61,979 nt of DNA, filler included, from Candidatus Woesearchaeota archaeon (GCA_003650545.1; 10 parts of 10 records of this genome joined end to end with filler, not necessarily neighbours in it), one strand, 5' to 3'; counted from the whole stretch's first letter, positions 1-56,635 are shown. Numbers and translations are program-made. The notes: a model not told the origin generated them from the sequence alone.

Positions 1-153
1 AAAGTATATTTAGAAAAGTGTTTAGAAAAATGTTTAGAAAAGTATTTAGAAAAGTAAGGGTTTAGTAAATTATAAAAAAATATGAAAAGAAAAATAAAAA
101 TACGAAAAGGAAAATAAAAATATGAAAAAAGAAACAAGAAAAAACAAGAAAAA
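1..153. repeat. Degenerate intergenic tandem repeats (about 12-bp AAAAGTGTTTAG units, then about 20-bp AAAAATAYGAAAAGRAAAAT units, then ACAAGAAAA x2)
   Basis: Direct repeats visible at 1-65, 76-130 and 134-153, downstream of the 1274-aa gene. Confidence 0.75.
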
Positions 154-225
154 CACACATAATTTATAAAAAAACAATTTTATTAAAACATTTATTGAAA
201 AGCTATTCATATCAACTATTTATAG

Positions 226-3200
226 CTATTTATAGTAAAAGGTTGTAACATTTGCGCTTAAACCATATGTTTGAGTGTTGTTGTTATACCCATAGACATG
301 CCAATTATACCTTTTATTCTTTAAAAATATGTTCTCATCTGCAATGTATGATGTGCCCTGTACATAGTCCTTTAACACAATAGCATCATTTTCATCCTGT
401 ATAATCAGCAAATAAACATCAGCACCTCTTGCGTGGCTCCATTTAAATAAGGGTGTGTTAATTTCTTCGCCATCTGAAGGCGTTATTAGGAGAGGATTTT
501 CAGGAACACACAAACCATATTTACAATGTGTTTCACTGGGGCAATCATGAATTTTTTCATCCAAAATAAAACACCCATCCTTTAAGATACATTCTCTAAA
601 GCCATCTCCATAACATACCAAGCTGTTGTTTGAGCATTCATTGCAGGAAGGCGTTCTTAAACTAATTAAGTGAGAGTCAAAAAATTTTTTTTCTCCATTT
701 TCATAATAAACAGCCCTCACCACGAAATAGTACCGTGTGTCAGGATAAAGATTTGTTACAGTATAATCTTTTTGATTTACTTTTGCCACAAATGTGTATT
801 CATTTGGCAAAAACTCTTCAGATGTAGATTTATACACTTCATAGTATGCTATGGGAAAAGCAATTTCATGGTCCCATTTTAAAGTAACTGAGTCTCTATC
901 CAAATCAGAATAACTAAGTTCCAAACTGGCAACATAAAAATCCATCTGATCAAAAATGTTATATTCTGAGAAACCGTAATCACCTATGCTGTATTGTGTT
1001 TCACCATTCTCTGACTTTCTCGCCACATCCACCCGGAACATGTATTTTCCTGGTTCTTCAGGCGCTATAAAATTAAAGTGGATAATATCATTCCCATAAT
1101 TGAAAGGACACGAAACATCCAAATGAGCAATTCTTTTATCTCGAAATACATTCTGGTCTTTTCCTTCGATTAAAAATCTTCTTTCAATAATAGACTTGAT
1201 CAATACATCGCCAGCACCAAGACCCCAGGTACAACCAGCTGTATTCAAATTAACAACAGAAACTTCAACATCTACAGACTGCCCAGGCAACACTATTCCT
1301 ATGTTATTATCTACTTTCATTCCTATGTTGTTATTTATCTTCAGGCTGGCCCAAGGTTTTAATAAACCATCAAAGGTTATTGCAGCGTTATCCGCTGTGT
1401 TAACAGCAACATCCCAGAGGTCTGCGCCCATTCCAACAATGCACTCACCAGCTCCTAAGGTTATTCTGAGTGTATTAAGGCCTGGCAGATAACTCAATGG
1501 TCCTAGAAGATCACTTATTGGATCGTGATGATCAAAATAACAATCTATATAGTAATCTGTGTTAAATAACTTTTCTAAAATTAGCCTTTTAAATGGGATA
1601 CCAGCATCTAGACCAATTGTTTCTAAAACTATACTAATGCCTTCAAAAGGAAGAGTCACGATTACAGTTTGTGGCAAGATAATTGTGTGAGCTGTTTTAC
1701 CAATGCCATACACCATTGCCCTAACAGGGTCTGCTCCTTCACTTAATCTATACACTGCATGAGTTATACCGCCTATAAGGGCAAAATGGGTTTCCCATTT
1801 TTTATTAAAATCTCTAACACTTTTGAAAAATTTAGCAATATCGTCAAGTTCTTCTTCTATCATCACGGTAGTTTCACCCACATTTTCATAATTCAAAGCC
1901 GAAGACAAGTAAAAAGTATTTGCAGAGGTTACCATACTTTCTGCAGTTTTTGACAAGTCATTTCCCAAATTAATGATTTTGTATTTATTAAGAAGCTCAG
2001 CAGACAGAGCAATGAATTCAACACTATCGCCAAAATATCCTACACCTTTATCAGACATCCCTAAAAAGTTTCTACGTTCTTCAGAAGTCGTTAAATTTAA
2101 CCCGTTGAAAAATCTTTCACACTCTTCATCAGTGTCAGTGATGCATGATTCAATTAATTTCTGAAAAGCCGCTTTATCGAGAAGATAAAAATCATACTCT
2201 TTACAGGCACCATTTTCACATTTTAGTTCACACTCCTCAATCTTCCTTGTCTCGATCTTTCTTTCACAACCTCCATTGGAACAAAAATCAATTGTAAACT
2301 TTTGATATAAAATGTTTCCATCACAGTATGGCTCTGTATATGGAATCTCTGCACCACAATCAGAATCTCTCTCACAACTCTGGCAATAACCAGATGCGCA
2401 ATTGTCACAGAAAGCTACATGGAACCAATCGTAGCAGCCCTCATTGCTCCAGCTACACACCTGGACTGATCTGCCACTACATCTCCTGTCGCCAATCTCA
2501 CACATGTCAAAACAGCTGCCTGTGTAAAATGTTGCAGAATCTGTATAGCCATACCAGTCGTTTTCTTTATCATAAGACGAAATAAACCAGTGATAAGTTT
2601 TATTTTTATCAAGAATGTTTTCAGACAATCTGTAAAATGTATAATTGGTGTGTGTGTCCAAAAGCCAGTTGTTAGATTCGCTATCTTTTAAGCGAAGATT
2701 ATACTCTACGCCCTCACCAGGTACCATTGACCACTGGAACAGAGGGTTTTTCTGTTTTATTTTTTCTCTATCCGATGGATATATTATGTGTGGTTTTTTA
2801 AGTACACAACTACCATAAAAACAATCTTTTGATGCAGGACAATTGTTGTAGGTCCAATAAAACTTCCCGTCTGGTTGTTTCTTACACTCTCTGTATTTTC
2901 TATCATCGACACAGTTTTTTTCGCCTATCACAGTACAAGGGGGATTGACCTTAAAATACATTTCACCATTTGTGTTATAAAAACCAGCAGTTGGGCTAAA
3001 GCTGTTTGACTTTTTGCTAAATGCGCTGATGCGCCAGTAATATCTTTCAAACAGATTCAACAATCCATCAGGTATCTTATAACTTGTTGTATTTAAAATT
3101 ACAGTAGAAACCAAATTATAATCCCCATAATCGTATTCAACAATGTCTATCTTATAAAAGTCAGCTTCTGGCACCGGAGTCCATTCTAAAGTTGGTGTGA

Positions 3201-4050
3201 ATGTTGAAACATCTTTATTGAATTCAGGTCTAAGCAGTTCAGGGATGTGAGGCGTGCATATACCATAATCGCAAATAAAATCCCCTAGTTCCAGACAATC
3301 TTCATCAGTTAAACAGTACCTAAAATCCTCATCCGTTAGATTACACTCCTTTTTAATACAGAATCCACCCAGGTCACCCAAACCGATATAGTCACAATAG
3401 CCAAGATTATAACAAGTATCACTATAACAAACACCAGTTAAGAATCCACAAAATTCACATGCAGATGCTTCCAAAAGCATTTTGCATGTTTTCCCAGAGA
3501 TATCATTTGAAGCTGTGTCTGAATTATTCCAATTTTCTTGACTACCATTATTATTGTGACTATCATTGAAGTTGCAAACTATACCTTCATCAATCTCACC
3601 ATCACAATCATTATCTTTGTCATCACAAACCTCTGTTCCATAAGGGGAGTTTTGCTGATTACTATCATTGCAATCTTCGATAGTTAGACATCTACCAACA
3701 TCAAGCACTTTACCATGTTGCAAGTCACTTATACAGTTTTCTCCTTCTTCACAGAACTTTCCAGCGCCGTCCATATCGCGATCTACACATAAAACAACAC
3801 AGACATCTTTCAGGTAATCATATTCTGAATTATAAGGACAGCATTTATCATTCAAAAAATAATCCTCGCCAGCTCCAGAACAATATGTTCCAGAAGGGCA
3901 ATCCATGTCATTTCTACAAAATTCATTTCCGCTGTTAGTTGGTGTAGGTTGAATAGTAGGAAGCTCAACAGAGTGGACAGATGAGGAGGATATTAACACC
4001 ACTAATAGAATTAAAAATATCATAATTAATTTATTTTCATTACATTTCAC
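226..4050 (-). CDS. Large secreted cysteine-rich surface protein with FN3-like modules and a putative metal-binding (MopE-like) motif
   Basis: N-terminal signal peptide; DCNDS...EVCDDKDNDCDGEIDEG motif; three 'P..F.W..V..A..Y.L.I...Y.W' modules; one classic FN3 (VTLKW...YTVTNLYPDTRYYFVVRA); many Cys-rich spacers. Confidence 0.8.
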   Translation of the reverse strand: MKCNENKLIMIFLILLVVLISSSSVHSVELPTIQPTPTNSGNEFCRNDMDCPSGTYCSGAGEDYFLNDKCCPYNSEYDYLKDVCVVLCVDRDMDGAGKFCEEGENCISDLQHGKVLDVGRCLTIEDCNDSNQQNSPYGTEVCDDKDNDCDGEIDEGIVCNFNDSHNNNGSQENWNNSDTASNDISGKTCKMLLEASACEFCGFLTGVCYSDTCYNLGYCDYIGLGDLGGFCIKKECNLTDEDFRYCLTDEDCLELGDFICDYGICTPHIPELLRPEFNKDVSTFTPTLEWTPVPEADFYKIDIVEYDYGDYNLVSTVILNTTSYKIPDGLLNLFERYYWRISAFSKKSNSFSPTAGFYNTNGEMYFKVNPPCTVIGEKNCVDDRKYRECKKQPDGKFYWTYNNCPASKDCFYGSCVLKKPHIIYPSDREKIKQKNPLFQWSMVPGEGVEYNLRLKDSESNNWLLDTHTNYTFYRLSENILDKNKTYHWFISSYDKENDWYGYTDSATFYTGSCFDMCEIGDRRCSGRSVQVCSWSNEGCYDWFHVAFCDNCASGYCQSCERDSDCGAEIPYTEPYCDGNILYQKFTIDFCSNGGCERKIETRKIEECELKCENGACKEYDFYLLDKAAFQKLIESCITDTDEECERFFNGLNLTTSEERRNFLGMSDKGVGYFGDSVEFIALSAELLNKYKIINLGNDLSKTAESMVTSANTFYLSSALNYENVGETTVMIEEELDDIAKFFKSVRDFNKKWETHFALIGGITHAVYRLSEGADPVRAMVYGIGKTAHTIILPQTVIVTLPFEGISIVLETIGLDAGIPFKRLILEKLFNTDYYIDCYFDHHDPISDLLGPLSYLPGLNTLRITLGAGECIVGMGADLWDVAVNTADNAAITFDGLLKPWASLKINNNIGMKVDNNIGIVLPGQSVDVEVSVVNLNTAGCTWGLGAGDVLIKSIIERRFLIEGKDQNVFRDKRIAHLDVSCPFNYGNDIIHFNFIAPEEPGKYMFRVDVARKSENGETQYSIGDYGFSEYNIFDQMDFYVASLELSYSDLDRDSVTLKWDHEIAFPIAYYEVYKSTSEEFLPNEYTFVAKVNQKDYTVTNLYPDTRYYFVVRAVYYENGEKKFFDSHLISLRTPSCNECSNNSLVCYGDGFRECILKDGCFILDEKIHDCPSETHCKYGLCVPENPLLITPSDGEEINTPLFKWSHARGADVYLLIIQDENDAIVLKDYVQGTSYIADENIFLKNKRYNWHVYGYNNNTQTYGLSANVTTFYYK

Positions 4051-7831: not shown

Positions 7832-7931
7832 NNNNNNNNNNNNNNNNNNNNNNNNNNNNNNNNNNNNNNNNNNNNTTAATTAATTAANNNNNNNNNNNNN
7901 NNNNNNNNNNNNNNNNNNNNNNNNNNNNNNN
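7832..7931. other. Artificial contig linker (44N-TTAATTAATTAA-44N)
   Basis: Identical 100-bp spacer with stops in all six frames, also at 15384-15483, 22072-22171, 28358-28457, 34063-34162, 39760-39859, 45429-45528, 51015-51114 and 56536-56635. Confidence 0.97.
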
Positions 7932-14817: not shown

Positions 14818-15663
14818 TGTACTCCTCCTTTTGCTTTTTTTTTAATTAATTTATCAGAACTAAAATTCTTACGGAATGGTTTCATTACCTCCTTTCTTGA
14901 GATTTTCCGTTTTATTTTAGATCAAAAGTTAAAAACACAATAGATTTATCAAGAAGATCTATCAGGAACTAATTATAGATTGAACATTATAGATTGAACT
15001 AGTTATAGTTACTCTTACTTTTATAATTACCTTAAATTTTATTATAATTACTTTTATTAAGATTTTCTGCCAGCAGGTTTTCCAGCATGAAAATGCTCAG
15101 GAAAATGCTCCACCTCAAAGGCTTCTACGCATTTTAAATCTTGCCAAACTTTGCAGCACTCTCGGCTTAAGATGAATGCTTTATAGCAAAGTTAAAACCA
15201 AAATTGGTTTAAAGGCAAATATATCGTCTGAATTCTAGGTTAGATAAACCTTTAAGGTTTAAATACTTTTAGACAGATTTGCCGAAAAATATTCGATAGT
15301 TTTTATGTGTATGTTTTTGTTTAAGTAACAATAACCAATTTAGATGTTGTTTTTGATTTAATTAACAACAACCAATAAATACANNNNNNNNNNNNNNNNN
15401 NNNNNNNNNNNNNNNNNNNNNNNNNNNTTAATTAATTAANNNNNNNNNNNNNNNNNNNNNNNNNNNNNNNNNNNNNNNNNNNNATATAAGACTCTTTAGG
15501 TTATTTCTAAAATTAAACATTTATTTAAAATTAAAGTTACATTGAAATAATTATAAAATAAATAAAATATAGTAGAATTATTTCAACATACAAAACATAC
15601 AAAAAGAGAGGAGTAAATTTTCCTCCTCAACATCATCATTTCATTTAACTTAATCGTCTTATC

Positions 15664-22071: not shown

Positions 22072-22171
22072 NNNNNNNNNNNNNNNNNNNNNNNNNNNNN
22101 NNNNNNNNNNNNNNNTTAATTAATTAANNNNNNNNNNNNNNNNNNNNNNNNNNNNNNNNNNNNNNNNNNNN

Positions 22172-28355: not shown

Positions 28356-28457
28356 TANNNNNNNNNNNNNNNNNNNNNNNNNNNNNNNNNNNNNNNNNNN
28401 NTTAATTAATTAANNNNNNNNNNNNNNNNNNNNNNNNNNNNNNNNNNNNNNNNNNNN

Positions 28458-34062: not shown

Positions 34063-34162
34063 NNNNNNNNNNNNNNNNNNNNNNNNNNNNNNNNNNNNNN
34101 NNNNNNTTAATTAATTAANNNNNNNNNNNNNNNNNNNNNNNNNNNNNNNNNNNNNNNNNNNN

Positions 34163-39753: not shown

Positions 39754-39859
39754 ATCACCNNNNNNNNNNNNNNNNNNNNNNNNNNNNNNNNNNNNNNNNN
39801 NNNTTAATTAATTAANNNNNNNNNNNNNNNNNNNNNNNNNNNNNNNNNNNNNNNNNNNN

Positions 39860-40858
39860 CAAGAATCCCCAGAGGTTTTTAGAAACCAGATAGCTCATCT
39901 TGTTAAGCTTAATAAATTAAGAAACGAGGTTATAGAAAGTATAAATCCAGAGGTAAGCGAAGAAGAAGCCTATCAAAAGTTTCTTGATGAGTATAATACT
40001 TTGTCTGTTGAACTTGTTCAGTTTGATGACTTAAAAGAAGCAGAAAAGTTTTATGAGAAGCTTAAGGAGCCTCTGTCCAAGGATAGAGTAAGTCATCTTG
40101 TATGGGAGGACCTGGTATTGTCCTACGAAGCAAACAGACGACATATAACTATTGACGATAGAGAATTAAACAGGGTTTTAAGTGAATTTTTTTTCTTGAA
40201 TGATATAAGGTTTAACTGGCGTAGAGACAAGGAGAAGTTAAACTCCTACCTAAAAGATAATTTTGACATGGACGTAGAGACTTTTAACAAAGTCTTTTCT
40301 AAACTAGTTATCGTAGATAAGCTCAGGAAAAAAATATATGCAAAAGAGGAGTCACCTGTAGATTGGGAAGCTTACAATAAATTTCTTAAAAAGAACAAAA
40401 ATTTAAATAGAGCCTACAGTCGGTTTTTTAATAAGTTTAAGGTAAAAGATAATATATTGAGATTCTCCAGCTTTAATAGGGCAAAAGAGTTTTATAAAAG
40501 AATTAAAAGAGAAGAAAACCCTTGGGATAACAAAAAGAGAAGACAACCCCATTTATTTAAAAGGCCAGGTTTTGTCTCGCTTGATTTTTTGATTAATATC
40601 TGGAAGTTTAAGAGAGCTGATGCCTATAAGATGTTAGATTATACGGCCGGAAGCTTCTATCCCCCTTCTCCTATATACAAAGGATATGCCGTATTTAAGA
40701 TTCTTAAAGTGAGAAAAGCAAAAAAAGAGGATTTTGTAAAAAGGAAACAATACTATTTTGGCAGAGTTAAAAATATTAAGAAATACGAAGGGTTTAAACA
40801 GTGGCTTAAAGATTTAAAAGAAAAAGCTGATATAAAAGTTTACATAAATAACGAATAA
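39860..40858 (+). CDS. SurA/PpiD-like periplasmic chaperone-like protein (5'-truncated)
   Basis: Internal duplicated helical module; C-terminal GY.VFKI...F..WL.DL.EKADIK typical of SurA/PrsA ends; frame open to the contig edge. Confidence 0.55.
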   Translation, partial: QESPEVFRNQIAHLVKLNKLRNEVIESINPEVSEEEAYQKFLDEYNTLSVELVQFDDLKEAEKFYEKLKEPLSKDRVSHLVWEDLVLSYEANRRHITIDDRELNRVLSEFFFLNDIRFNWRRDKEKLNSYLKDNFDMDVETFNKVFSKLVIVDKLRKKIYAKEESPVDWEAYNKFLKKNKNLNRAYSRFFNKFKVKDNILRFSSFNRAKEFYKRIKREENPWDNKKRRQPHLFKRPGFVSLDFLINIWKFKRADAYKMLDYTAGSFYPPSPIYKGYAVFKILKVRKAKKEDFVKRKQYYFGRVKNIKKYEGFKQWLKDLKEKADIKVYINNE

Positions 40859-40961
40859 AAACACAACGCACCTTTTATTATAACAAATGCTTATTTTCCT
40901 TTAGTCTTTACTTTTTATTCCCGCTAAAGTATAATTCTCCTTGAAGATAATAAGATAAGTA

Positions 40962-42833
40962 ATGTTCGGTAAAATAGGCGTATTAGGCATAGTAGTTTTT
41001 TTGTGTATATCTATATATTTTAATGCACTAAATGGTGAATTTATATGGGATGACAAAATATCGATATTAGATAACAAATATACACACAGCCTCAAATACA
41101 TACCAGAGTTTTTCTCTTCTCCTTTTTTTAGTTTAGGAAGCAAGAGTCCAAGAATAAGCCAGTCAGATTATTATCGTCCCCTTGTTAGTGTTTCATTTGC
41201 TTTAGATTATTTCTTTTATAAAGACACTCCTTTTGGTTTTCATGTGGCCAACTTAATTCTTCACCTTTTGAATGTGTTGCTGGTATTTTTCCTTATGAGA
41301 ATGTTATTAAAAGACTTTTGGTGTGCATTTTGGATAAGTATTATTTTTGCCGTCCATCCTGTAAACTCAAGCACTGTTTCTTATATCTCCAACAGGCCAA
41401 ATCTGTTATTAGTTTTGTTTTGTCTTTTGTCTTTTGTTTTTTACATAAAGGACAAATGTCCTCTTTCTTATTTATTTTTCCTTATGGCATTGCTTTCAAA
41501 AGAATCTAGTGTTATTCTTCCTTTGGTATTTGTAGCTTATGATTACTTAGAAAGAAAGAGTATTAGAAATAATTTTATTAAACTACTGCCCTATTTCTTT
41601 TTAATATTTATTTATTTTGTAATTAGGAATAAGGTATTCGGAATATGGAGGATAGAGGGCAGTTGCATATTTTGTAAGTTAGGAGAGAGAGTGCTTGCAT
41701 TTTTTGTTATGATTTTTGATTTCATAAGAGTTATATTTTTACCCTTTGGGCTTCATTTTGAAAGGTTAATATCTTCTAATGATAATTTTTTCATTTTAAA
41801 AAGTATGGTAGGTGTTATTTTTACTGTAGTTTTATTGTATATCAGTTTGCGTTCTAAGAAGACGAAACCCCTCTATTCTTTAGGGATATTTTGGTTTTTT
41901 CTGGGGCTTTTACCAACCTCTCAAGTTTTCCCTTTAATTGTAGATGATAAATACTTAGCGAGTGAGCATTTTTTGTATTTTCCTCAGATAGGTTTACTTA
42001 TGTTTATATTTTTATGTTTAAGAGACAGAATAAGTTATATTTCTTTTAAGGTATTTATTTCTATAATAATATTAGTTTTTAGCATTTTAACCATCCATTA
42101 TAATCAAACTCAATGGAAGAATGAAAAAGATTTTTTATTATACAATTTAAGATTTGAGAGAACTTCCCGTCTATATAATAATTTGGGGAAAGTTTATCAG
42201 GAGGAAAGAGATTTTAAGAAGGCAGAAGAGGTCTATCGTAAGGCCAAAGAAATGAATTCTCACTATTTAAAATCTCGTTATAACTTAGCTACTCTTTTAG
42301 CTGAAGAGGGAAGGTTTATATCTGCTGAGAGAGAATATCAGGATATTTTAAATATTTATCCTTTCTATGGAGATGTTTATAATAACTTAGGGGTGATAAA
42401 ATTAAGAGAAGGTAAATTAAATGAGGCGTTAGAACTTTTTAGAAAGGCTCTTCTTTTATCTAATGATAATGCTGATGCTTATTGTAATTTAGGTTTAGTG
42501 TTAGGGAAAAAGGGAGATGAAAAGGATGCTATAAGTTATTATATTAAGGGAATAAATATTGACCCTAATAATATAGGATGTCTTAGCCAGTTAGCTCTAA
42601 TTTACATAAAAAGAGGAGATTTTGATAGAGCCCTTACATATCTTAATAGAATATTAGATTTAGATAAGAAAAATGCTGGTGTTCTTCAGAATATAGGGAA
42701 TATTTATTTTACCAAGAAAGAGTATAAAAGAGCACTGTTGTATTATAATAAGGCGTTGAGATTGAATCCTTCAAATAAAGCTCTCAGGGATAATATAAGT
42801 ATAGTCAAGGATATTTTAAATGAAGGAAAATGA
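40962..42833 (+). CDS. TMTC-like GT-C protein O-mannosyltransferase with C-terminal TPR repeats
   Basis: F.WDD, YYRPL, FH..NL.LH, FAVHP.....V.YIS.R, LLSKE, E(H)FLYFP, W..E..L; several TPRs. Confidence 0.9.
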   Translation: MFGKIGVLGIVVFLCISIYFNALNGEFIWDDKISILDNKYTHSLKYIPEFFSSPFFSLGSKSPRISQSDYYRPLVSVSFALDYFFYKDTPFGFHVANLILHLLNVLLVFFLMRMLLKDFWCAFWISIIFAVHPVNSSTVSYISNRPNLLLVLFCLLSFVFYIKDKCPLSYLFFLMALLSKESSVILPLVFVAYDYLERKSIRNNFIKLLPYFFLIFIYFVIRNKVFGIWRIEGSCIFCKLGERVLAFFVMIFDFIRVIFLPFGLHFERLISSNDNFFILKSMVGVIFTVVLLYISLRSKKTKPLYSLGIFWFFLGLLPTSQVFPLIVDDKYLASEHFLYFPQIGLLMFIFLCLRDRISYISFKVFISIIILVFSILTIHYNQTQWKNEKDFLLYNLRFERTSRLYNNLGKVYQEERDFKKAEEVYRKAKEMNSHYLKSRYNLATLLAEEGRFISAEREYQDILNIYPFYGDVYNNLGVIKLREGKLNEALELFRKALLLSNDNADAYCNLGLVLGKKGDEKDAISYYIKGINIDPNNIGCLSQLALIYIKRGDFDRALTYLNRILDLDKKNAGVLQNIGNIYFTKKEYKRALLYYNKALRLNPSNKALRDNISIVKDILNEGK

Positions 42834-43248
42834 TAATTTAAATTACAAAGAGGTTAGAGTATTTAAATTAAGAGGCAATTCTATGTGGCCTTTTATAAAA
42901 GATGGTGATATAGTGATAGTGGAGCCAACGGAAATTAATAATATCTTTTTGGGACAGATAGTTCTTGCAGAAGAAGGTGGGGTGTTTTTTTGTCACCGTC
43001 TTTTTAAAAAGAAAGGAGAGTTTTTCCAAACAAAAGCAGATACTTTTTTTGGATTGGATCCTCTATTAGAAGAAAGAAATCTTTTAGGAAAAGTAATTGC
43101 TATAAAAAGGAGAGGAAAAATTATAAGGATAGATAGAAGATTGCACTATTTTATGGGTTTTTTTATTTTATGGTTTACTTTCTTTATTTCTCCTTTTTAT
43201 TATATTCTACGAAGATTAAGAAAGATAGGGAACAATGTACATAGATAG
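42820..43248 (+). CDS. S24/S26 signal-peptidase-like protein
   Basis: GNSMWPFIKDGD (catalytic Ser), HR, TKAD, D motifs; C-terminal hydrophobic helix. Confidence 0.85.
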   Translation: MKENDNLNYKEVRVFKLRGNSMWPFIKDGDIVIVEPTEINNIFLGQIVLAEEGGVFFCHRLFKKKGEFFQTKADTFFGLDPLLEERNLLGKVIAIKRRGKIIRIDRRLHYFMGFFILWFTFFISPFYYILRRLRKIGNNVHR

Positions 43249-44326
43249 AGAAAATATAATTTTGAATCTTAACCAAGAGACTAAACCATTTCTTCAGATT
43301 AAGCTTTCTAAATTCATGGAGCTTACAGAAGAAGAGTTCGCTCACTTAGTAAAGGAAGTAGAAAAGGATGATTTATTTAGAAAGTTAACTTATCCTTTAG
43401 AAAGTTTTTCTTTTCGCCTTATAAGTTATCATCGTTATCCCTATACAGAAATCAAATCCAGTATTTATAAAATTATTGAGAATGTGATAAAGGATGAAAG
43501 TTCTCCTGATATCGATGATCTTCTTCTAATTTATAAAGATACAGTAGAAATAATCAAAAATATTGGTGAGAATAATTTTAAGAAATATTTCTTATATAAT
43601 GATTTTGATTTACCGATAAGTGAGTTAGCAAGGATATGCCAGACAACTGAAGAGAAAGTCTTTAGAGTAATTGAAATGATGGATGAATTTTTTATCAGGT
43701 CAAGATTAAAGAGAGAATCTACTCCTGCTGTTCAGAAGGTATCATATTGGTTAATAGCTTCTCTGCGTAAGGTTAAGGGAAGGATTGTTGTTGAGTTTTT
43801 GGATTTAAATTTAGCCAGAGGATTATATAGAATAGACTACGAAAGACTCAAACAGTTAAAGAATGCTGATTTCTTTTCTAAAAGAGAGTTAAAAAGATTG
43901 AGTTTGTTAATAGAAAAACTCACTTTAATAAATTTTAGAAAAACGACGGTTTTTAGAATTCTCTCTTATATTATTAGAAAACAGAGAGCATTTCTTAGTA
44001 CAGGTGAACCCTCTAAGCTTATTCCTTTAACTCAGAAAGAGTCAGCAAAAGAATTGGGTATTTCTTTAAGCCTTGTAAGCAGAACCATAAGGTATAAAAG
44101 TGTTCTTGCTCCTTGGGGAGAAGAGCTTCCTTTAAAATTCTTCTTTCCAAACCTTAAAGAGGTAAGAATATCGATTCTTAAAGAAATTGTTGATAAAGAG
44201 AAGTTTGATAACGATCAGAGAATAAAGGAGAAGTTACAAAAGGATTACGGTATTTATATATCCAGGCGGACAATAAGTAAATACAGAAAAGAATTAAAAG
44301 TCCCATCATTGAGGAGAAGAAGATGA
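43235..44326 (+). CDS. Divergent sigma-54 (RpoN)-like protein
   Basis: Q..FL..G....L.PLTQKE.A.ELG.S.S.VSR....K....PWG...LKFFF HTH; DQ.I...L...GI.ISRRTISKYR.EL.VP RpoN-box-like; only 363 aa. Confidence 0.75.
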   Translation: MYIDRENIILNLNQETKPFLQIKLSKFMELTEEEFAHLVKEVEKDDLFRKLTYPLESFSFRLISYHRYPYTEIKSSIYKIIENVIKDESSPDIDDLLLIYKDTVEIIKNIGENNFKKYFLYNDFDLPISELARICQTTEEKVFRVIEMMDEFFIRSRLKRESTPAVQKVSYWLIASLRKVKGRIVVEFLDLNLARGLYRIDYERLKQLKNADFFSKRELKRLSLLIEKLTLINFRKTTVFRILSYIIRKQRAFLSTGEPSKLIPLTQKESAKELGISLSLVSRTIRYKSVLAPWGEELPLKFFFPNLKEVRISILKEIVDKEKFDNDQRIKEKLQKDYGIYISRRTISKYRKELKVPSLRRRR

Positions 44327-45428
44327 ATGGTTATTCTCTAATTTTAGACATTCTCCGTCGAGATTTCCAATATTCTAAATTAAAAGACATAGGAACATCG
44401 TCAATAGAGTGGGATATTTTTTTAGAAGGAGCATTTCGGGAAGGGGTAGCTGGTTTTATATTCTCTAGATTAAGAAATGACAGTGTAAAGAACTATTTCC
44501 CAGAGAATGTCTTGATAAGGTTGGAAGAATTTTATCTTACTAATTTAGGAAGAAATACTATTATATATAAAGAGTTAGAGAGTATTTTTAAGTCTCTGAA
44601 CGAAGAAGGAATTATTTGTTTTATTAACCGAGGGGCGTACTTTTCAAAGTATCTTTATTGCGATTTAGGAATAAGGGCTATGGCAGATGTTGATATGGTG
44701 ATTTTTGACGAGGATTTGGAGAGATTTAAGAATGTTGTCTTAAACATGGGGTATGGTTATTTTGATAGGTATCCTTTCTTCTTTTATAAGAATGGTTGCT
44801 ATATTGATTTGCATCTGAATAAGCCGGGATTCTGGAGGGTGGATAATTGGCCTTGCGGTTTTACAATTAAAGATATAGAGATTCAAAGAAGAAGCCTTCC
44901 TTTAGAAAACAGTTTGTCCAATATACGGGTGTTTGACGTTTATGACTTTATTCTAGGGTGCTGCCAACATCTTCAGGAGCATTCCTTTTCTAAGCTTATA
45001 TGGTTTATAGATGTGGCCAAGCTTATAGAATCAAAGGGAAGTGATTTTGAATGGAAAGTTTTAGAAGAGAGGGCAGAGAATTTTAATCTTAAAAAACCCT
45101 TTTATTTTGTGATAGAATATCTTACAAAGAATAATTTAGTTTCCTTGCCACATTATATAAATAGGAAATACGTTGCTTTGAATTTTATAGAAGAGAAAAG
45201 CTTAAGCCTCATTGTTGCTAACAAAAGAAATTATGTATGTGGGTGGATGTTGTTTCTTTTTCTTGCAAAGGGGATGAAGGATAAGTTTAATTTATTAAGA
45301 AAGATATTGTTTTTAAAAAAAGAGTATATTCCTTTATCTAAAGAGCCAGGTTTTTCTTCTTATTTGAGACGCTTTCTGGGTATTATAGGGTATATTCTAA
45401 GAATGGCTATAGTGCTTGTTATGGTGTA
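44323..45428 (+). CDS. Uncharacterised nucleotidyltransferase family protein (NTP_transf_5-like)
   Basis: L...GI.....G.....LY...G.R...DVD, IDLH, H...H....L.W..D motifs; stop probably cut at the contig edge. Confidence 0.82.
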
Positions 45429-45528
45429 NNNNNNNNNNNNNNNNNNNNNNNNNNNNNNNNNNNNNNNNNNNNTTAATTAATTAANNNNNNNNNNNNNNNN
45501 NNNNNNNNNNNNNNNNNNNNNNNNNNNN

Positions 45529-47358
45529 AAAGACACAACAGCACCAAAAATACACATCATCTTTCCATCTGTAAATAACACAAAAATAACTTCTCAAGAC
45601 ACGATTAGATTCGAGATCAGTGATTATAATATGTCAACCCATGTTTATGTTGATGATCCTGATGGGCAACATGATGCTGAAGGAGTTTTTCCATTTTTCA
45701 CAATTCCTGCAAATTGGGATACTAGTGATGGTTTAAAACAAATTATAATTCATGCAAATGACGGACAGTTCGAAGTAAATCGAACCATTTATGTTGATCT
45801 ACAAAACGATATATTCGGCTATTTGGATGCTTCTGAGCAGAATGCTGAAGATGTTGAGACTAAGATGAATAATGTAAGTAGAGCGGTAGCTGTTGTTACG
45901 GACGAATCTAAACAAGATGCATATGAAAAACTCAACTTTATGAAAGAATTGAATGAATCTTTAACTAATTTGACTATTCTTAAGAATAACATAACCTCTA
46001 TTAAAGAAAGCACTTTAGATAATGTAACCAAGATTGCATTATTGAATGCAATAAGAGCAAAGATTGAAGATCTTTTAGATAATACACCAGCAGATGTAGA
46101 TATCTTAGAAGAGGATTCTGGTTTAAACACAACATTTCAAAATACTGATGAGCTTGATGCTGTTCTTTCAATAGCAGGAAACTTAAACAAAGTTGATACT
46201 TCTGTAAACACCAGAATCCAAAGTGTCAAGAAAAAATATCTTTCTGGCAAAGAGGAAAATACCACTGTTGTTTCTACTAAAGCAATCTATAATGGCACAG
46301 AATATGACGTTGGGTATTTTTCCGATAAGCTTAATACAACAAAAGCGCGAACAGATGGAGTGAGAGCTACGTTGGCTACAAACGGGAGTTCTATCTTTGT
46401 TGTACTTGGTTTGGATAAGAATGTAACAACTATTGCTCTAACTGGTATCTGTAATGGTGGTGCAAGCACCTGTGATCTGCAAGGCTTGAACAAAAGTAAG
46501 ATTGATTTTACCGAGCCTGAAAACTCTACATTTAGTGTAGTGGAAGCAGATCCAATAGTGAAGTGGAGCTTTAGTGCAGCTGGTAGTGGAAGCACTAGCA
46601 CGGGTAGTGATACAAGTGATACGTCTCAAAGTACAAGCTCATTAATATATACAGGAATGATCGAGTTACAAGAAATCAATAAGTGGGATGTTATTAGGGC
46701 AAATGAGCCAACGTTTATGACATTGACTAAAGCAGTTGTTATAACAGAACTAGAGTTTATAGTTAAAAGAGAGCTGAGTGATATATACATTAAGATAAGC
46801 AAGCTTACAAAGAAACCTACGATTTTAGATACACCAGCTAAGAAGGTTTACAAATATCTTCAGATCGATTCGAATATTGATGATGAAGATATAAAATCTG
46901 CAACAGTTTCATTTGAGGTTGCCGATGCCTGGTTTAAAAATAACGATATTAATCCTGATACCATTGTGCTTTTCCATCATGATGGAAAGAATTGGGAGGA
47001 ATTGCCTACGTCAAAAACAGGTAAAACGGATTATAGTTATACCTATGAGGCAACCACAAAAAAATTCAGCTATTTTGCTGTTGGTGTGAGTAAAGCCAAA
47101 ATAGCACAAATGGCAGAATCTGCTTCAGAGGAAGTGATTGATATTGGTACACCAGACAAAAATGAGGGGGAAGACGAAACCAGTGGGGATATCGATATCA
47201 TAGGAGGGGTTGTTGGGAAAAGGAGTCGTGCTTCAATAGTTGTTGTGATTCTTCTTGCAATTGTTGTTGTTGGAATAGCGGGAGTGTTTATATATAAAAT
47301 GTCTATATATAGAAAAAGTTATTATAGAAAAAGTTATAAAAAAGTAAGAAAGAGGTGA
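45529..47358 (+). CDS. PGF-pre-PGF domain surface protein (5'-truncated) with a C-terminal TM anchor
   Basis: VYKYLQI...I..ATVSFEV...W...N.I....IVL.H.....WEELPT......Y.YEA.T..FSYFAVG; TM plus basic tail. Confidence 0.85.
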   Translation, partial: KDTTAPKIHIIFPSVNNTKITSQDTIRFEISDYNMSTHVYVDDPDGQHDAEGVFPFFTIPANWDTSDGLKQIIIHANDGQFEVNRTIYVDLQNDIFGYLDASEQNAEDVETKMNNVSRAVAVVTDESKQDAYEKLNFMKELNESLTNLTILKNNITSIKESTLDNVTKIALLNAIRAKIEDLLDNTPADVDILEEDSGLNTTFQNTDELDAVLSIAGNLNKVDTSVNTRIQSVKKKYLSGKEENTTVVSTKAIYNGTEYDVGYFSDKLNTTKARTDGVRATLATNGSSIFVVLGLDKNVTTIALTGICNGGASTCDLQGLNKSKIDFTEPENSTFSVVEADPIVKWSFSAAGSGSTSTGSDTSDTSQSTSSLIYTGMIELQEINKWDVIRANEPTFMTLTKAVVITELEFIVKRELSDIYIKISKLTKKPTILDTPAKKVYKYLQIDSNIDDEDIKSATVSFEVADAWFKNNDINPDTIVLFHHDGKNWEELPTSKTGKTDYSYTYEATTKKFSYFAVGVSKAKIAQMAESASEEVIDIGTPDKNEGEDETSGDIDIIGGVVGKRSRASIVVVILLAIVVVGIAGVFIYKMSIYRKSYYRKSYKKVRKR

Positions 47359-48733: not shown

Positions 48734-49183
48734 ATGAAGTATAGAGTATTAAATACCAAAGAAAAGAAAAAGGTTCTAGAGCTTTTAGAGCAACGGTTTG
48801 GTTTTGATGATAAGTTAGGTTATACTTTTTTGCAGAGCGCAGCAAAGATCTACTTGGCTAACAGAGAGTTATTTGACTTTGATATAGAAAGTTTGAGGAT
48901 TAACAATTTAGGCGTTTATTTCTGTGAGATAATAGGCCAGGATGTTAGGCTTAGTGTTGAAGGTTCTCAGTTGATAGGACCTAAAGCTAAGAAGAATGTT
49001 GTTGAACTGAATAGTGATGAGTTTAACGCTTGGTTGAAAGGCATGAATATTAATGTCGATGTTGATTACGATGGTTTTGTTATAGTCAAACATGGCAATG
49101 ACTATGCAGGTTGTGGTAGGGTGAAAAATAATGAATTAAAAAATTATTTACCCAAAACCAGAAGGATAAGTAAGGAAGCTTAG
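48734..49183 (+). CDS. NIP7/RsmF-C-like PUA-domain RNA-binding protein
   Basis: G.YF......RLS.EGSQL.G..A.KNV.EL...W..G..I...GFVIV......GCG.....L.NY.PK.RR; ATG at 48734. Confidence 0.72.
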   Translation: MKYRVLNTKEKKKVLELLEQRFGFDDKLGYTFLQSAAKIYLANRELFDFDIESLRINNLGVYFCEIIGQDVRLSVEGSQLIGPKAKKNVVELNSDEFNAWLKGMNINVDVDYDGFVIVKHGNDYAGCGRVKNNELKNYLPKTRRISKEA

Positions 49184-50310
49184 CCATTCAAGCTTTTCAA
49201 TATATTCAAAACATCTCTAATCTGAGTTGTAGAAAAATCAACACAACTAAAATCGCCTTTATGCTCTTCTGCCCATTTGCCATGTTTAAGCCATATTGTT
49301 GTTAATGCTAATTTTTTAGCAGATACCAAATCAACAGGAGGGCGATTGCCGACCATGATACATTCAACAGGATTGACATCTAGCTCATTCAAAGTCTTTT
49401 CAAATATTTTTAATCCAGGCTTGTTTAACCCAACATCGTCTGATGTAAGTATGACATCGAACAGCTTGTTTAAACCGAGCTTCTTGATGCGCTTCATTTT
49501 TATCTCTTTCTTACCATCAGAATCTGATATGAGAGCCAACTTTATTTTCATCTTCTTTAAACTTTTTAGAGTCTCTTTTGCTTTTGACACGAGCCTAACT
49601 TTAGACGAAATAGTCTTCCAGTATAAATTTACTAGTTTCTTGATATAGTCAGCATCAACCTTGATGTTTAGATTCGAAAAGGCTTCCCTGAACCATTTAT
49701 CTCTAGAAAGGTCTTTTGGGTTTAAACTATGGCCTGAATATTTTGCGTCAATTCTGTTGATCTCTTCAACAATTTTTTTAGCATCGTCCTTAAATTTTTT
49801 ATTTAAGAACTTCTCTAATTTTGTGTCTAGATGTTTTCTTACGCTTTCCCAATCTTCAATTGTGTTATCGAAATCAAATATTATTGCAGATATAGGGATT
49901 TTTTCTAGTACGACCGTGATTTTTGTGTCTGGCACCTGAAGGTTTTGAATAAGTTCTCTATTTAAGTCTGAAGCGGCTTTGTTCGCTTTGACACATAATG
50001 TTTTTGCATCTATATAGTTTGATTTCCTGATGATGATTTCTGTTGGATCACTCAATTTTAGATTCTTATTTCCGTAAGCTACTATAATTTCTTCTTTACC
50101 ATTGGCTTCAATGGTTATTGCTATCTTTGACGTTTTTAATACTGATTTGAAATCTCCTAGGTCCTGTAATGAATGAGAAGCAGAAACGCCAGCATAGCTA
50201 TCACCGCCTTTTGTTAGATAGTTATCTGTTGTAAATGCGATATTTGTTTTGTTTGTGCAAGTTATATTTCTATGTCCGCTGGCCCTAAACTCGAACTTCA
50301 TAGAATTCAA
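49180..50310 (-). CDS. DUF371 - HAD hydrolase fusion protein
   Basis: N-terminal GH.NI.....T...T.D..LT..GD...GV.A...RKS.Y...TL...ANKAA.DL.R (DUF371); C-terminal FDFDNT, SD, KP and VGN....D HAD motifs. Confidence 0.85.
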   Translation of the reverse strand: MNSMKFEFRASGHRNITCTNKTNIAFTTDNYLTKGGDSYAGVSASHSLQDLGDFKSVLKTSKIAITIEANGKEEIIVAYGNKNLKLSDPTEIIIRKSNYIDAKTLCVKANKAASDLNRELIQNLQVPDTKITVVLEKIPISAIIFDFDNTIEDWESVRKHLDTKLEKFLNKKFKDDAKKIVEEINRIDAKYSGHSLNPKDLSRDKWFREAFSNLNIKVDADYIKKLVNLYWKTISSKVRLVSKAKETLKSLKKMKIKLALISDSDGKKEIKMKRIKKLGLNKLFDVILTSDDVGLNKPGLKIFEKTLNELDVNPVECIMVGNRPPVDLVSAKKLALTTIWLKHGKWAEEHKGDFSCVDFSTTQIRDVLNILKSLNG

Positions 50311-51014: not shown

Positions 51015-51114
51015 NNNNNNNNNNNNNNNNNNNNNNNNNNNNNNNNNNNNNNNNNNNNTTAATTAATTAANNNNNNNNNNNNNNNNNNNNNNNNNNNNNN
51101 NNNNNNNNNNNNNN

Positions 51115-56534: not shown

Positions 56535-56635
56535 ANNNNNNNNNNNNNNNNNNNNNNNNNNNNNNNNNNNNNNNNNNNNTTAATTAATTAANNNNNNNNN
56601 NNNNNNNNNNNNNNNNNNNNNNNNNNNNNNNNNNN

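Follow-up and report, generated by a model that had tools for sequence, protein, structure and literature searches.

The 61,979-base window analysed here, filed under a Candidatus Woesearchaeota archaeon (GCA_003650545.1), carries on one of its contigs a block of four co-directional, overlapping genes, the third of which encodes a 363-residue protein that is probably a functional, enhancer-dependent sigma-54 of compact type, the second of its organism beside a canonical rpoN. The usual view of sigma-54 is of one uniform protein with three domains, and surveys recognise it by the corresponding Pfam triad. The protein described here is a member of a family, several hundred sequence clusters in size, in which the DNA-binding domain (DBD) alone is recognisable, the chain is about 100 residues shorter, and the gene is physically tied to that of its own activator. 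The contig that carries it is bacterial and was mis-binned into an archaeal genome bin, and the sigma-54 is not to be credited to the archaeal genome.

The gene lies on the + strand at window positions 43,235–44,326. Pfam finds a single domain in its product, Sigma54_DBD (PF04552), with 79.8 bits against a cut-off of 22.8 over residues 217–363. This agrees with a preliminary description of the DNA, made from the sequence alone, in which a protein of 363 residues with an RpoN helix-turn-helix (HTH) and the box SRRTISKYR had been noticed. The box was there called a variant; the S-for-A change is real, but the canonical sigma-54 of the same organism has it too (SRRTIAKYR), so it characterises the lineage and does not set the short form apart. 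The two sigma-54s have almost the same RpoN box (SRRTISKYRKELKVP versus SRRTIAKYREELKIP). The public gene call for the contig begins the sigma gene 27 codons later (336 residues), whereas the 14-nt overlap with the preceding gene needs the upstream ATG; the long, 363-residue form is favoured because residues 14–27 are conserved in the family, with Q14 present in at least 90% of 56 sequences.

An AlphaFold model of the protein, built with 56 family sequences, reached a predicted local distance difference test (pLDDT) of 80.6 and a predicted template modelling score (pTM) of 0.80. When the whole model was searched with Foldseek, PDB ranks 1–31 were all sigma-54/SigN chains of RNA polymerase complexes, with a best E of 6e-10, and VIA-align gave a Z of 14.2 over 228–230 aligned residues, residues 14–363 of the model corresponding to 12–475 of a sigma-54 chain. 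Helices at 17–52, predicted at pLDDT 75–90, align with sigma-54 residues from ~12 on. Profile comparison with canonical sigma-54 (hhalign) gave a probability of 99.95 over residues 129–363 against 205–453 of a 457-residue protein; since the Pfam CBD of that protein spans 107–275 and the match starts at 205, the last ~70 positions of the core-binding domain (CBD) are homologous. The first 70 residues are in register with canonical Region I (QETKPFLQIKLS-KFMELTEEEFAHLV-KEVEKDDLFRKL against QKLSLTPLMRQSLYILQLPLLELKNYIEKEIEENPVIEKE), in a weak match (E 8e-4, probability 24.6%). Two earlier statements are thereby refined: the core-binding region is unrecognisable to Pfam, yet profile homology reaches into it, and the Region-I-like start is seen in the in-register match and the predicted helices, though not as a Pfam AID domain. 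In our reading, the chain consists of Region I-like helices at ~17–52, a shortened and strongly diverged core-binding part at ~55–210, a long helix and HTH at ~216–286, and the RpoN domain at ~305–355, with Region II absent. It is apparently a complete sigma-54 of the compact type, and would bind the RNA polymerase core; it is a sigma-54 by its fold and its DNA-binding half, and a putative member of the family as regards core binding and Region I.

The protein has many relatives. A word-indexed search returned about ten at full length (358–389 residues), a metagenome scan for the short sigma gave 69 loci, and 1.84 billion representatives, searched exhaustively with a profile, yielded 350 at E≤1e-30, the best 150 of which were mostly full-length matches of ~340–420 residues, with some shorter fragments. 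Sigma54_DBD was matched by 56/56 aligned members. The N-terminal half is conserved along its full length, with G111, F115, C135 and Y198 invariant, and in the subclade of the window protein the N-terminus is poorer in Q than it is in the consensus of the family. In a quick IQ-TREE phylogeny of 80 rows, midpoint-rooted and omitting locus L088 (the longest open reading frame (ORF) of which is not the sigma gene), a branch with a Shimodaira–Hasegawa-like approximate likelihood ratio (SH-aLRT) of 100 sets 60 rows, made up of 57 short sigmas and three DBD-only proteins, apart from all 20 canonical sigma-54s, nine of them from the phylum of the metagenome-assembled genome (MAG) G001. The RpoN phylogeny that the preliminary description had proposed thus separates the two forms, and the window protein groups with five others at a clade support of 100. 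The three DBD-only proteins (L062:110–1360, L063:1791–3053, L068:777–2006; 409–420 residues) carry the sigma-54 DBD mid-protein (~141–295), without AID or CBD, and form a third architecture on this domain; in the tree they fall with the short family, at the end of a very long branch. The L062 protein has a weak C-terminal GIY-YIG-like match (E 1.9e-4).

The window is a chain of ~5.5-kb draft-genome contigs joined by nine identical N44-TTAATTAATTAA-N44 linkers (7832–7931, 15384–15483, 22072–22171, 28358–28457, 34063–34162, 39760–39859, 45429–45528, 51015–51114 and 56536–56635), so gene-neighbourhood reasoning across the linkers is void. The four-gene block lies on a single contig, window 39860–45428 (C57 of the source bin G000, 5569 bp), flanked by the artificial linkers at 39760–39859 and 45429–45528; left of 39860, a molybdopterin oxidoreductase on a different contig is not context for the sigma block, and the genes to the right belong to an unrelated, archaeal-looking contig. 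Both ends of the contig cut a gene, and its first and last genes are therefore incomplete.

The bin (1.64 Mb, 133 contigs, completeness 85%, contamination 3.9%) encodes, on contig C14, a two-repeat TATA-binding protein (TBP), the model of which matched only the four archaeal genomes among the controls. Within it, C57 stands out in composition: its GC content is 0.306, where the bin averages 0.362, and two tetranucleotide axes give it z values of 1.7 and 2.6. A search of 30 relatives of the bin found the short sigma-54 in none (0/30), with one 24-bit partial match. The bacterial origin of the contig is decided by its bases 1–3856, which are 100.000% identical, without gaps, to the end of contig C24 of the bacterial MAG G002. 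A second MAG, G001, has a relative on a 41-kb contig, at 88% nucleotide and 84% protein identity and with the same gene order. With an archaeal bin and a contig foreign to it, the check for a separate rpoN has to be made in G002 and G001. The former holds a canonical sigma-54 in one 466-residue frame (AID 62 bits, CBD 177 bits, DBD 169 bits), and the latter the first 52 codons of a canonical rpoN at a contig end, 82% identical to that of G002. The short form is sporadic, being found in four of 85 genomes of the order (G001, G002, where it is truncated by the contig end, G249 and G348), and at full length in 2/301 genomes sampled from the phylum of G001. No AID was found in G249 or G348, and the sole CBD match in G249, a weak one, is false, being a PEP-utilising enzyme. 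With a canonical rpoN in G002 and a fragment in G001, the short protein is an extra sigma-54 in at least two of the four genomes, which answers in those MAGs a check that was void within the bin. In the archaeal bin, the short protein is the only Sigma54_DBD match and there is no CBD match; two weak Sigma54_activat matches there were rejected, as they cover profile positions 79–139 only and the model matches in all 14 control genomes. In contig C63 of G249 (locus L087), an in-frame TGA was flagged within the match to the short sigma orthologue; the 363-residue ORF is intact, and the match probably ran beyond the stop codon.

In the wider family (35–40% identity), the sigma gene is followed on the same strand by genes for a kinase and a bacterial enhancer-binding protein (bEBP), or directly by the bEBP gene. 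The AAA+ domain of a same-strand bEBP starts within 4 kb downstream in 20 of the 22 loci that have at least 4 kb of flank. The two exceptions, L003 and L077, belong to the subclade of the window protein and have four genes inserted, the bEBP of L077 lying at +5.6 kb; the S24, NTP and tetratricopeptide repeat (TPR) genes of the subclade are absent from the wider family. Just downstream of the short sigma-54 in L022, L030, L034, L038, L039 and L045 is a gene for a ~650-residue sensor that joins a domain resembling the large subunit of [FeFe]-hydrogenase (Fe_hyd_lg_C, with Fe-S motifs) to HisKA/HATPase, and bEBP and response-regulator genes come next; this kinase may be a hydrogen or redox sensor feeding the short sigma-54 circuit. 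One branch of the family (L040, L044, L047 and L054) has a conserved gene order around the short sigma-54: upstream are genes for a small RF-1-domain protein, UPF0547 and MarC (as also in L012), and downstream those for an HTH_3-cupin regulator and a bEBP.

Within the subclade, the sigma gene is embedded in a longer operon. The four ORFs of the block (40962–42833, 42820–43248, 43235–44326 and from 44323 on) overlap by 14, 14 and 4 nt, exactly as first described, and the start/stop overlaps are kept in L077 and L003. The order of GT-C/TPR protein, S24 peptidase, sigma and NTP_transf_5 genes is conserved elsewhere, in seven other loci (L003, L004, L005, L006, L077, L087 and L113), as far as their contigs reach. 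The L077 operon, the most complete, begins with genes for a TPR protein, an unknown protein, a PEP-CTERM-type ATPase (TIGR03015, 192 bits, below the cut-off of 324.5), an HD-domain protein, a coiled-coil protein and a Wza-like exporter (TIGR03027, 126 bits against 180). These are followed by genes seven to eleven, encoding the SurA_N-like protein, the GT-C/TPR protein, the S24 peptidase, the short sigma-54 and the NTP_transf_5 protein, and then by those for a ScmC-like P-loop protein (27/30 of its atlas matches carry PF27840), PqqD, a radical SAM/SPASM enzyme, a HAMP histidine kinase and, in sixteenth place, an NtrC-type bEBP (Sigma54_activat, 236 bits). Locus L078, from the organism to which the contig belongs, has the same upstream gene order. 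In L003, PqqD and radical SAM genes are followed by a 251-residue ORF without a family match and a kinase gene near the contig end. The order ScmC-like, PqqD, radical SAM/SPASM after NTP_transf_5 is found in both subclade loci that are long enough. The PqqD and radical SAM neighbours that had been predicted are thus present in relatives; the contig of the window has neither gene, and ends in the preceding one, before any kinase or bEBP. A precursor gene, for which a check had also been proposed, was not found in L077, which has only three gaps >20 nt and no convincing precursor peptide ORF. The association of S24 peptidases and NTP_transf_5 proteins with PqqD cassettes, given earlier as established, was not confirmed in the literature searched. 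Taken as a whole, the early picture of a dedicated sigma-54-like factor in a conserved modification and export cassette is largely supported by the synteny, by the PqqD and radical SAM genes of relatives and by the separate rpoN.

Promoters of the -24/-12 type were sought with a GG/GC-anchored TGGCAC-N5-TTGCW pattern at up to two mismatches, against 30 dinucleotide-type shuffles. The 49 family loci scanned (439 kb) contain 97 sites, against 56.0 ± 6.3 in the shuffles (maximum 67). Of the sites with no more than one mismatch, many lie on the + strand, just past the bEBP gene and ahead of the next operon (for example in L012, L024, L034, L039, L044, L045, L047, L053 and L054). In L044, L047 and L054, this next operon carries ketoacyl synthase and B12-radical SAM genes. 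In L077, 39 canonical -24/-12 matches were counted, where 42 were expected. Elsewhere in the genomes of the subclade, near-perfect promoters of this kind precede some genes for surface proteins. Nine PEP-CTERM proteins are encoded in G002, three of them behind such a site, and one in G001. On contig C33 of G002 (L117; 7825–11123), TGGCACGCTTCTTGCT occurs twice and TGGCATATTTTTTGCT once, each just ahead of a PEP-CTERM gene, and on contig C101 of G001 (L104; 209–1082), TGGCATATTTTTTGCT lies 67 nt before the ATG of a 263-residue PEP-CTERM protein. The PEP-CTERM proteins preceded by these promoters have signal peptides, and the same contigs carry a kinase and a bEBP. Both MAGs also encode an exosortase, within a few kb of another bEBP. 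Judged from sequence, with their RpoN boxes nearly alike, either of the two sigma-54s may read these promoters.

A number of results weigh against a complete, activator-dependent sigma-54. Pfam Sigma54_CBD (PF04963) and Sigma54_AID (PF00309) were undetected in the 363-residue protein, and the 25 commonest of the 60 Pfam families returned for 56 family members include neither. The NCBIfam rpoN equivalog TIGR02395 scores 85.7 bits, against a cut-off of 277.35, and matches at model positions 265–434 only. The N-terminal 215-residue profile found no PDB sequence at E≤1, and that part modelled alone is poor (pLDDT 67, pTM 0.39); searches with this model returned no sigma-54, the best matches being unrelated winged-helix proteins in Foldseek (E 0.25) and an unrelated COMMD chain in VIA-wide (Z 5.6). 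When the N-terminal half was compared with the whole of canonical sigma-54, hhalign gave a probability of 8%. Since the model of that half is weak, these searches do not show that its fold is a different one. On the regulatory side, the count of 20/22 overstates the number of independent events, as related populations such as L022 and L023 are included; the kinase–bEBP end of the operon is unassembled for the organism of the contig, and the two bEBPs of G002 are only 44% identical to that of the L077 cluster. No site with up to two mismatches was found in intergenic DNA of the subclade loci scanned, or in the 10–14 kb upstream in G002 and G001, and the PEP-CTERM promoters could be served by the canonical sigma-54 instead.

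These results bear most directly on an alternative that we consider unlikely, though the strongest of those weighed, namely that the protein is a sigma-54-derived DNA-binding regulator that does not bind the core and acts as a repressor or competitor at -24/-12 promoters. Besides the undetected Pfam domains and the N-terminal half that alone finds no sequence match and no clear structural match to sigma-54, it has in its favour the canonical sigma-54 that co-exists in G002 and G001: with RpoN boxes so nearly the same, both proteins should see the same -24 element. A passive repressor, however, would have no need of the bEBP linkage, which fits a sigma factor that needs an activator; the alignment of the whole model with sigma-54 starts at residue 14, homology at the profile level extends into the CBD, and the N-terminal half, with its four invariant residues, is conserved throughout the family.

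An activator-independent sigma-54, a natural bypass form, is much less probable still. It would be in keeping with the missing Region II, the undetected Pfam AID, the less Q-rich N-terminus of the subclade and the lack of a -24/-12 site inside the cluster itself, but the helices at 17–52 align with sigma-54 from about residue 12, a Region I match, weak as it is, is in register, and a kinase and a bEBP end the L077 operon, as a bEBP lies near the sigma gene in 20/22 family loci. The preliminary description had suggested a factor either independent of an activator or acting as a repressor, and both suggestions run counter to the kinase and bEBP of L077, the bEBP linkage of the family, the excess of promoter sites (97 against 56) and the Region I-like N-terminus. 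That the protein is the only, very divergent housekeeping rpoN of its organism in an incidental neighbourhood, as might be read from its being the sole Sigma54_DBD match of a bin without a CBD match, from the lack of a canonical signature in G249 and of an AID in G348, is the least credible of all, given that the bin is archaeal and the contig foreign, that the matching MAG G002 has a complete canonical sigma-54 and G001 the first 52 residues of one, that the subclade gene order is conserved, and that the short form occurs in so few genomes of the order and phylum.

The compact, enhancer-dependent sigma-54 that we favour suggests the following scheme. The operon would be read from a sigma-70-type promoter, and the short sigma made by translational coupling within an envelope and peptide-modification operon, in which genes of PEP-CTERM-type exopolysaccharide (EPS) export, GT-C/TPR and S24/S26 proteins come before the sigma gene, and NTP_transf_5, ScmC-like, PqqD and radical SAM/SPASM genes after it. 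The kinase would phosphorylate the bEBP, which would in turn remodel the RNA polymerase that carries the short sigma at GG-N10-GC promoters, perhaps those before the PEP-CTERM surface-protein genes of the same genomes. The co-encoded enzymes may then process or modify exported proteins or peptides, their putative substrates. More speculatively, and on balance doubtful, the short family may be the sigma half of a self-contained, horizontally mobile cassette of sigma-54, kinase and bEBP, which would provide an orthogonal enhancer-dependent channel beside the canonical rpoN. The remodelled core-binding and Region I parts might in that case insulate it from the bEBPs of the host or hold RNA polymerase differently, and cargo operons, here for EPS and peptide modification, could be placed between the gene for the sigma factor and that for its activator.

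The other genes of the contig were identified with varying clarity. At its left end, open from the contig start, is the 3' part of a gene for a SurA_N-like periplasmic protein (39860–40858, + strand), the L077 orthologue of which has 473 residues. The product has no Pfam match of its own, and the 90%-identical L077 orthologue matches SurA_N_3 at 26.4 bits, below the cut-off of 27.2; the gene upstream that had been called a SurA-like chaperone is thus present, its likeness to SurA coming from the sub-threshold match of the orthologue only. In the 103-nt gap between this gene and the four-gene block lies a sigma-70-type promoter-like site, TTTACT-17-TATAAT (40907–40935, + strand), which is a consensus match only and is identical in L077, a relative at 84% identity.

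The first gene of the block (40962–42833, + strand) encodes a 623-residue membrane protein, with TPR repeats at the C-terminus by Pfam and a putative multi-pass GT-C/PMT_2-like domain at the N-terminus. For the latter, GT87 scores 22.3 bits, under the cut-off of 25, and language-model leads point to PMT_2 clusters (0.98) and TMTC_DUF1736 (0.92), with structures of TPR membrane proteins at a template modelling (TM) score of 0.91. In the earlier label of TMTC-like glycosyltransferase, the TPR part is accordingly clear, and the GT-C part is a lead from the sub-threshold GT87 match and the language-model and structure comparisons. The second gene (42820–43248, + strand) encodes an S24/S26-type serine peptidase of 142 residues with a C-terminal membrane anchor, as had been recognised (Peptidase_S24, 39.2 bits against a cut-off of 23.3). 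The motifs GNSMWPF, with the Ser nucleophile, CHR and QTKAD are invariant in four orthologues; H59 of CHR and K72 of QTKAD are both invariant, and either is a candidate general base. The fourth gene (44323–45428, + strand) encodes an NTP_transf_5 nucleotidyltransferase (PF14907, 122.3 bits against 31.2, residues 27–267), an identity that matches the early call. The end assigned to it at 45428 is wrong, the contig cutting the gene after 368 visible codons; the L077 orthologue, 96% identical, has 368 residues and a stop codon.

The bin itself is mixed. Its core, including contig C14 with the TBP, has a GC content of ~0.34, and foreign-looking contigs such as C31, C116, C44 and C62 are mixed in; sigma-70 region 2 is encoded on the stray contigs C31 and C116, the latter with a GC content of 0.64, and several small contigs are at 0.46–0.54. 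The archaeal-looking DNA to the right of the sigma block in the window encodes a PGF-pre-PGF domain protein (45631–47358; TIGR04213, 99 bits) and a DUF371-HAD fusion protein (49180–50310).

Surveys that use the Pfam triad would miss the short family, and the extent of sigma-54 regulation in uncultured lineages would therefore be underestimated. If the short form binds the core through a reduced, divergent region, it would be a natural minimal sigma-54, of use to structural studies of the way in which Region I and the CBD keep RNA polymerase closed. The near-identical RpoN boxes of one organism also make it possible to test by what means the circuits of two sigma-54s and several bEBPs are kept separate.

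Among known systems, the modification genes resemble the SynChlorMet (Scm) cassette, and other peptide-maturation cassettes with PqqD and radical SAM/SPASM, in that ScmC-like, PqqD and radical SAM/SPASM genes stand in a row in L077 and L003. They differ from the Scm cassette in their scores (ScmE 105 and ScmF 104 bits against a cut-off of 400) and in the lack of a precursor found in L077; in our search no publication on the SynChlorMet cassette was found, and the comparison is by NCBIfam and Pfam names. With canonical sigma-54 (RpoN/SigN; PDB entries 8f1i, 7qwp, 9msf, 5ui8 and 5nwt), the short form has in common the half made up of the extra-long helix, HTH and RpoN box, and the fold aligns over residues 14–363; NtrC-type bEBPs and GG-N10-GC promoters likewise occur in related short-sigma loci. 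Canonical sigma-54 has ~440–520 residues, whereas the short form has 363, lacks Region II, and has Pfam AID and CBD undetected. Housekeeping rpoN usually lies in the setting lptB-rpoN-hpf-ptsN. Unlike canonical rpoN, the short sigma gene is found inside an operon and, in relatives, beside its own kinase–bEBP pair.

The closest regulatory parallel is the PrsK-PrsR-PrsT system of PEP-CTERM/exosortase regulation, with sigma-54 promoters, in Proteobacteria (Haft et al. 2006, PMC1569441). As far as the available part of that source describes it, the likeness extends to a TPR protein, a histidine kinase and an NtrC-like regulator near EPS export genes, to sigma-54 promoters before PEP-CTERM genes (as on G002:C33 and G001:C101), and to the exosortase of G001 and G002. 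The cluster proteins nevertheless fall below the cut-offs of the NCBIfam PEP-CTERM equivalogs (ATPase 192/324.5, export 126/180, PrsT 103/312, PrsR 421/502.6), and in the same part of the source the system has neither a sigma factor of its own nor PqqD and radical SAM genes.

A literature search found no description of a compact sigma-54 family that is DBD-only by Pfam and tied to its own bEBP, which is not proof of absence. More than one sigma-54 per genome, as in G002, is a feature of the specialised rpoN paralogues: in the accessible portion of a 2025 survey, Rhodobacter sphaeroides has four rpoN genes (cited there from Poggio et al. 2002), and such paralogues are proposed to serve subsets of promoters and activators (PMC12316311). 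The paralogues as covered there are full-length, with three Pfam domains, and the short form is a separate, compact family, which the domain E-value cut-offs given in that portion (1.6e-14, 2.8e-50 and 2.3e-70) would exclude from the survey. Multiple copies of rpoN are thus already known, and the compact family coupled to its own bEBP appears, as far as the literature search goes, to be the new part.

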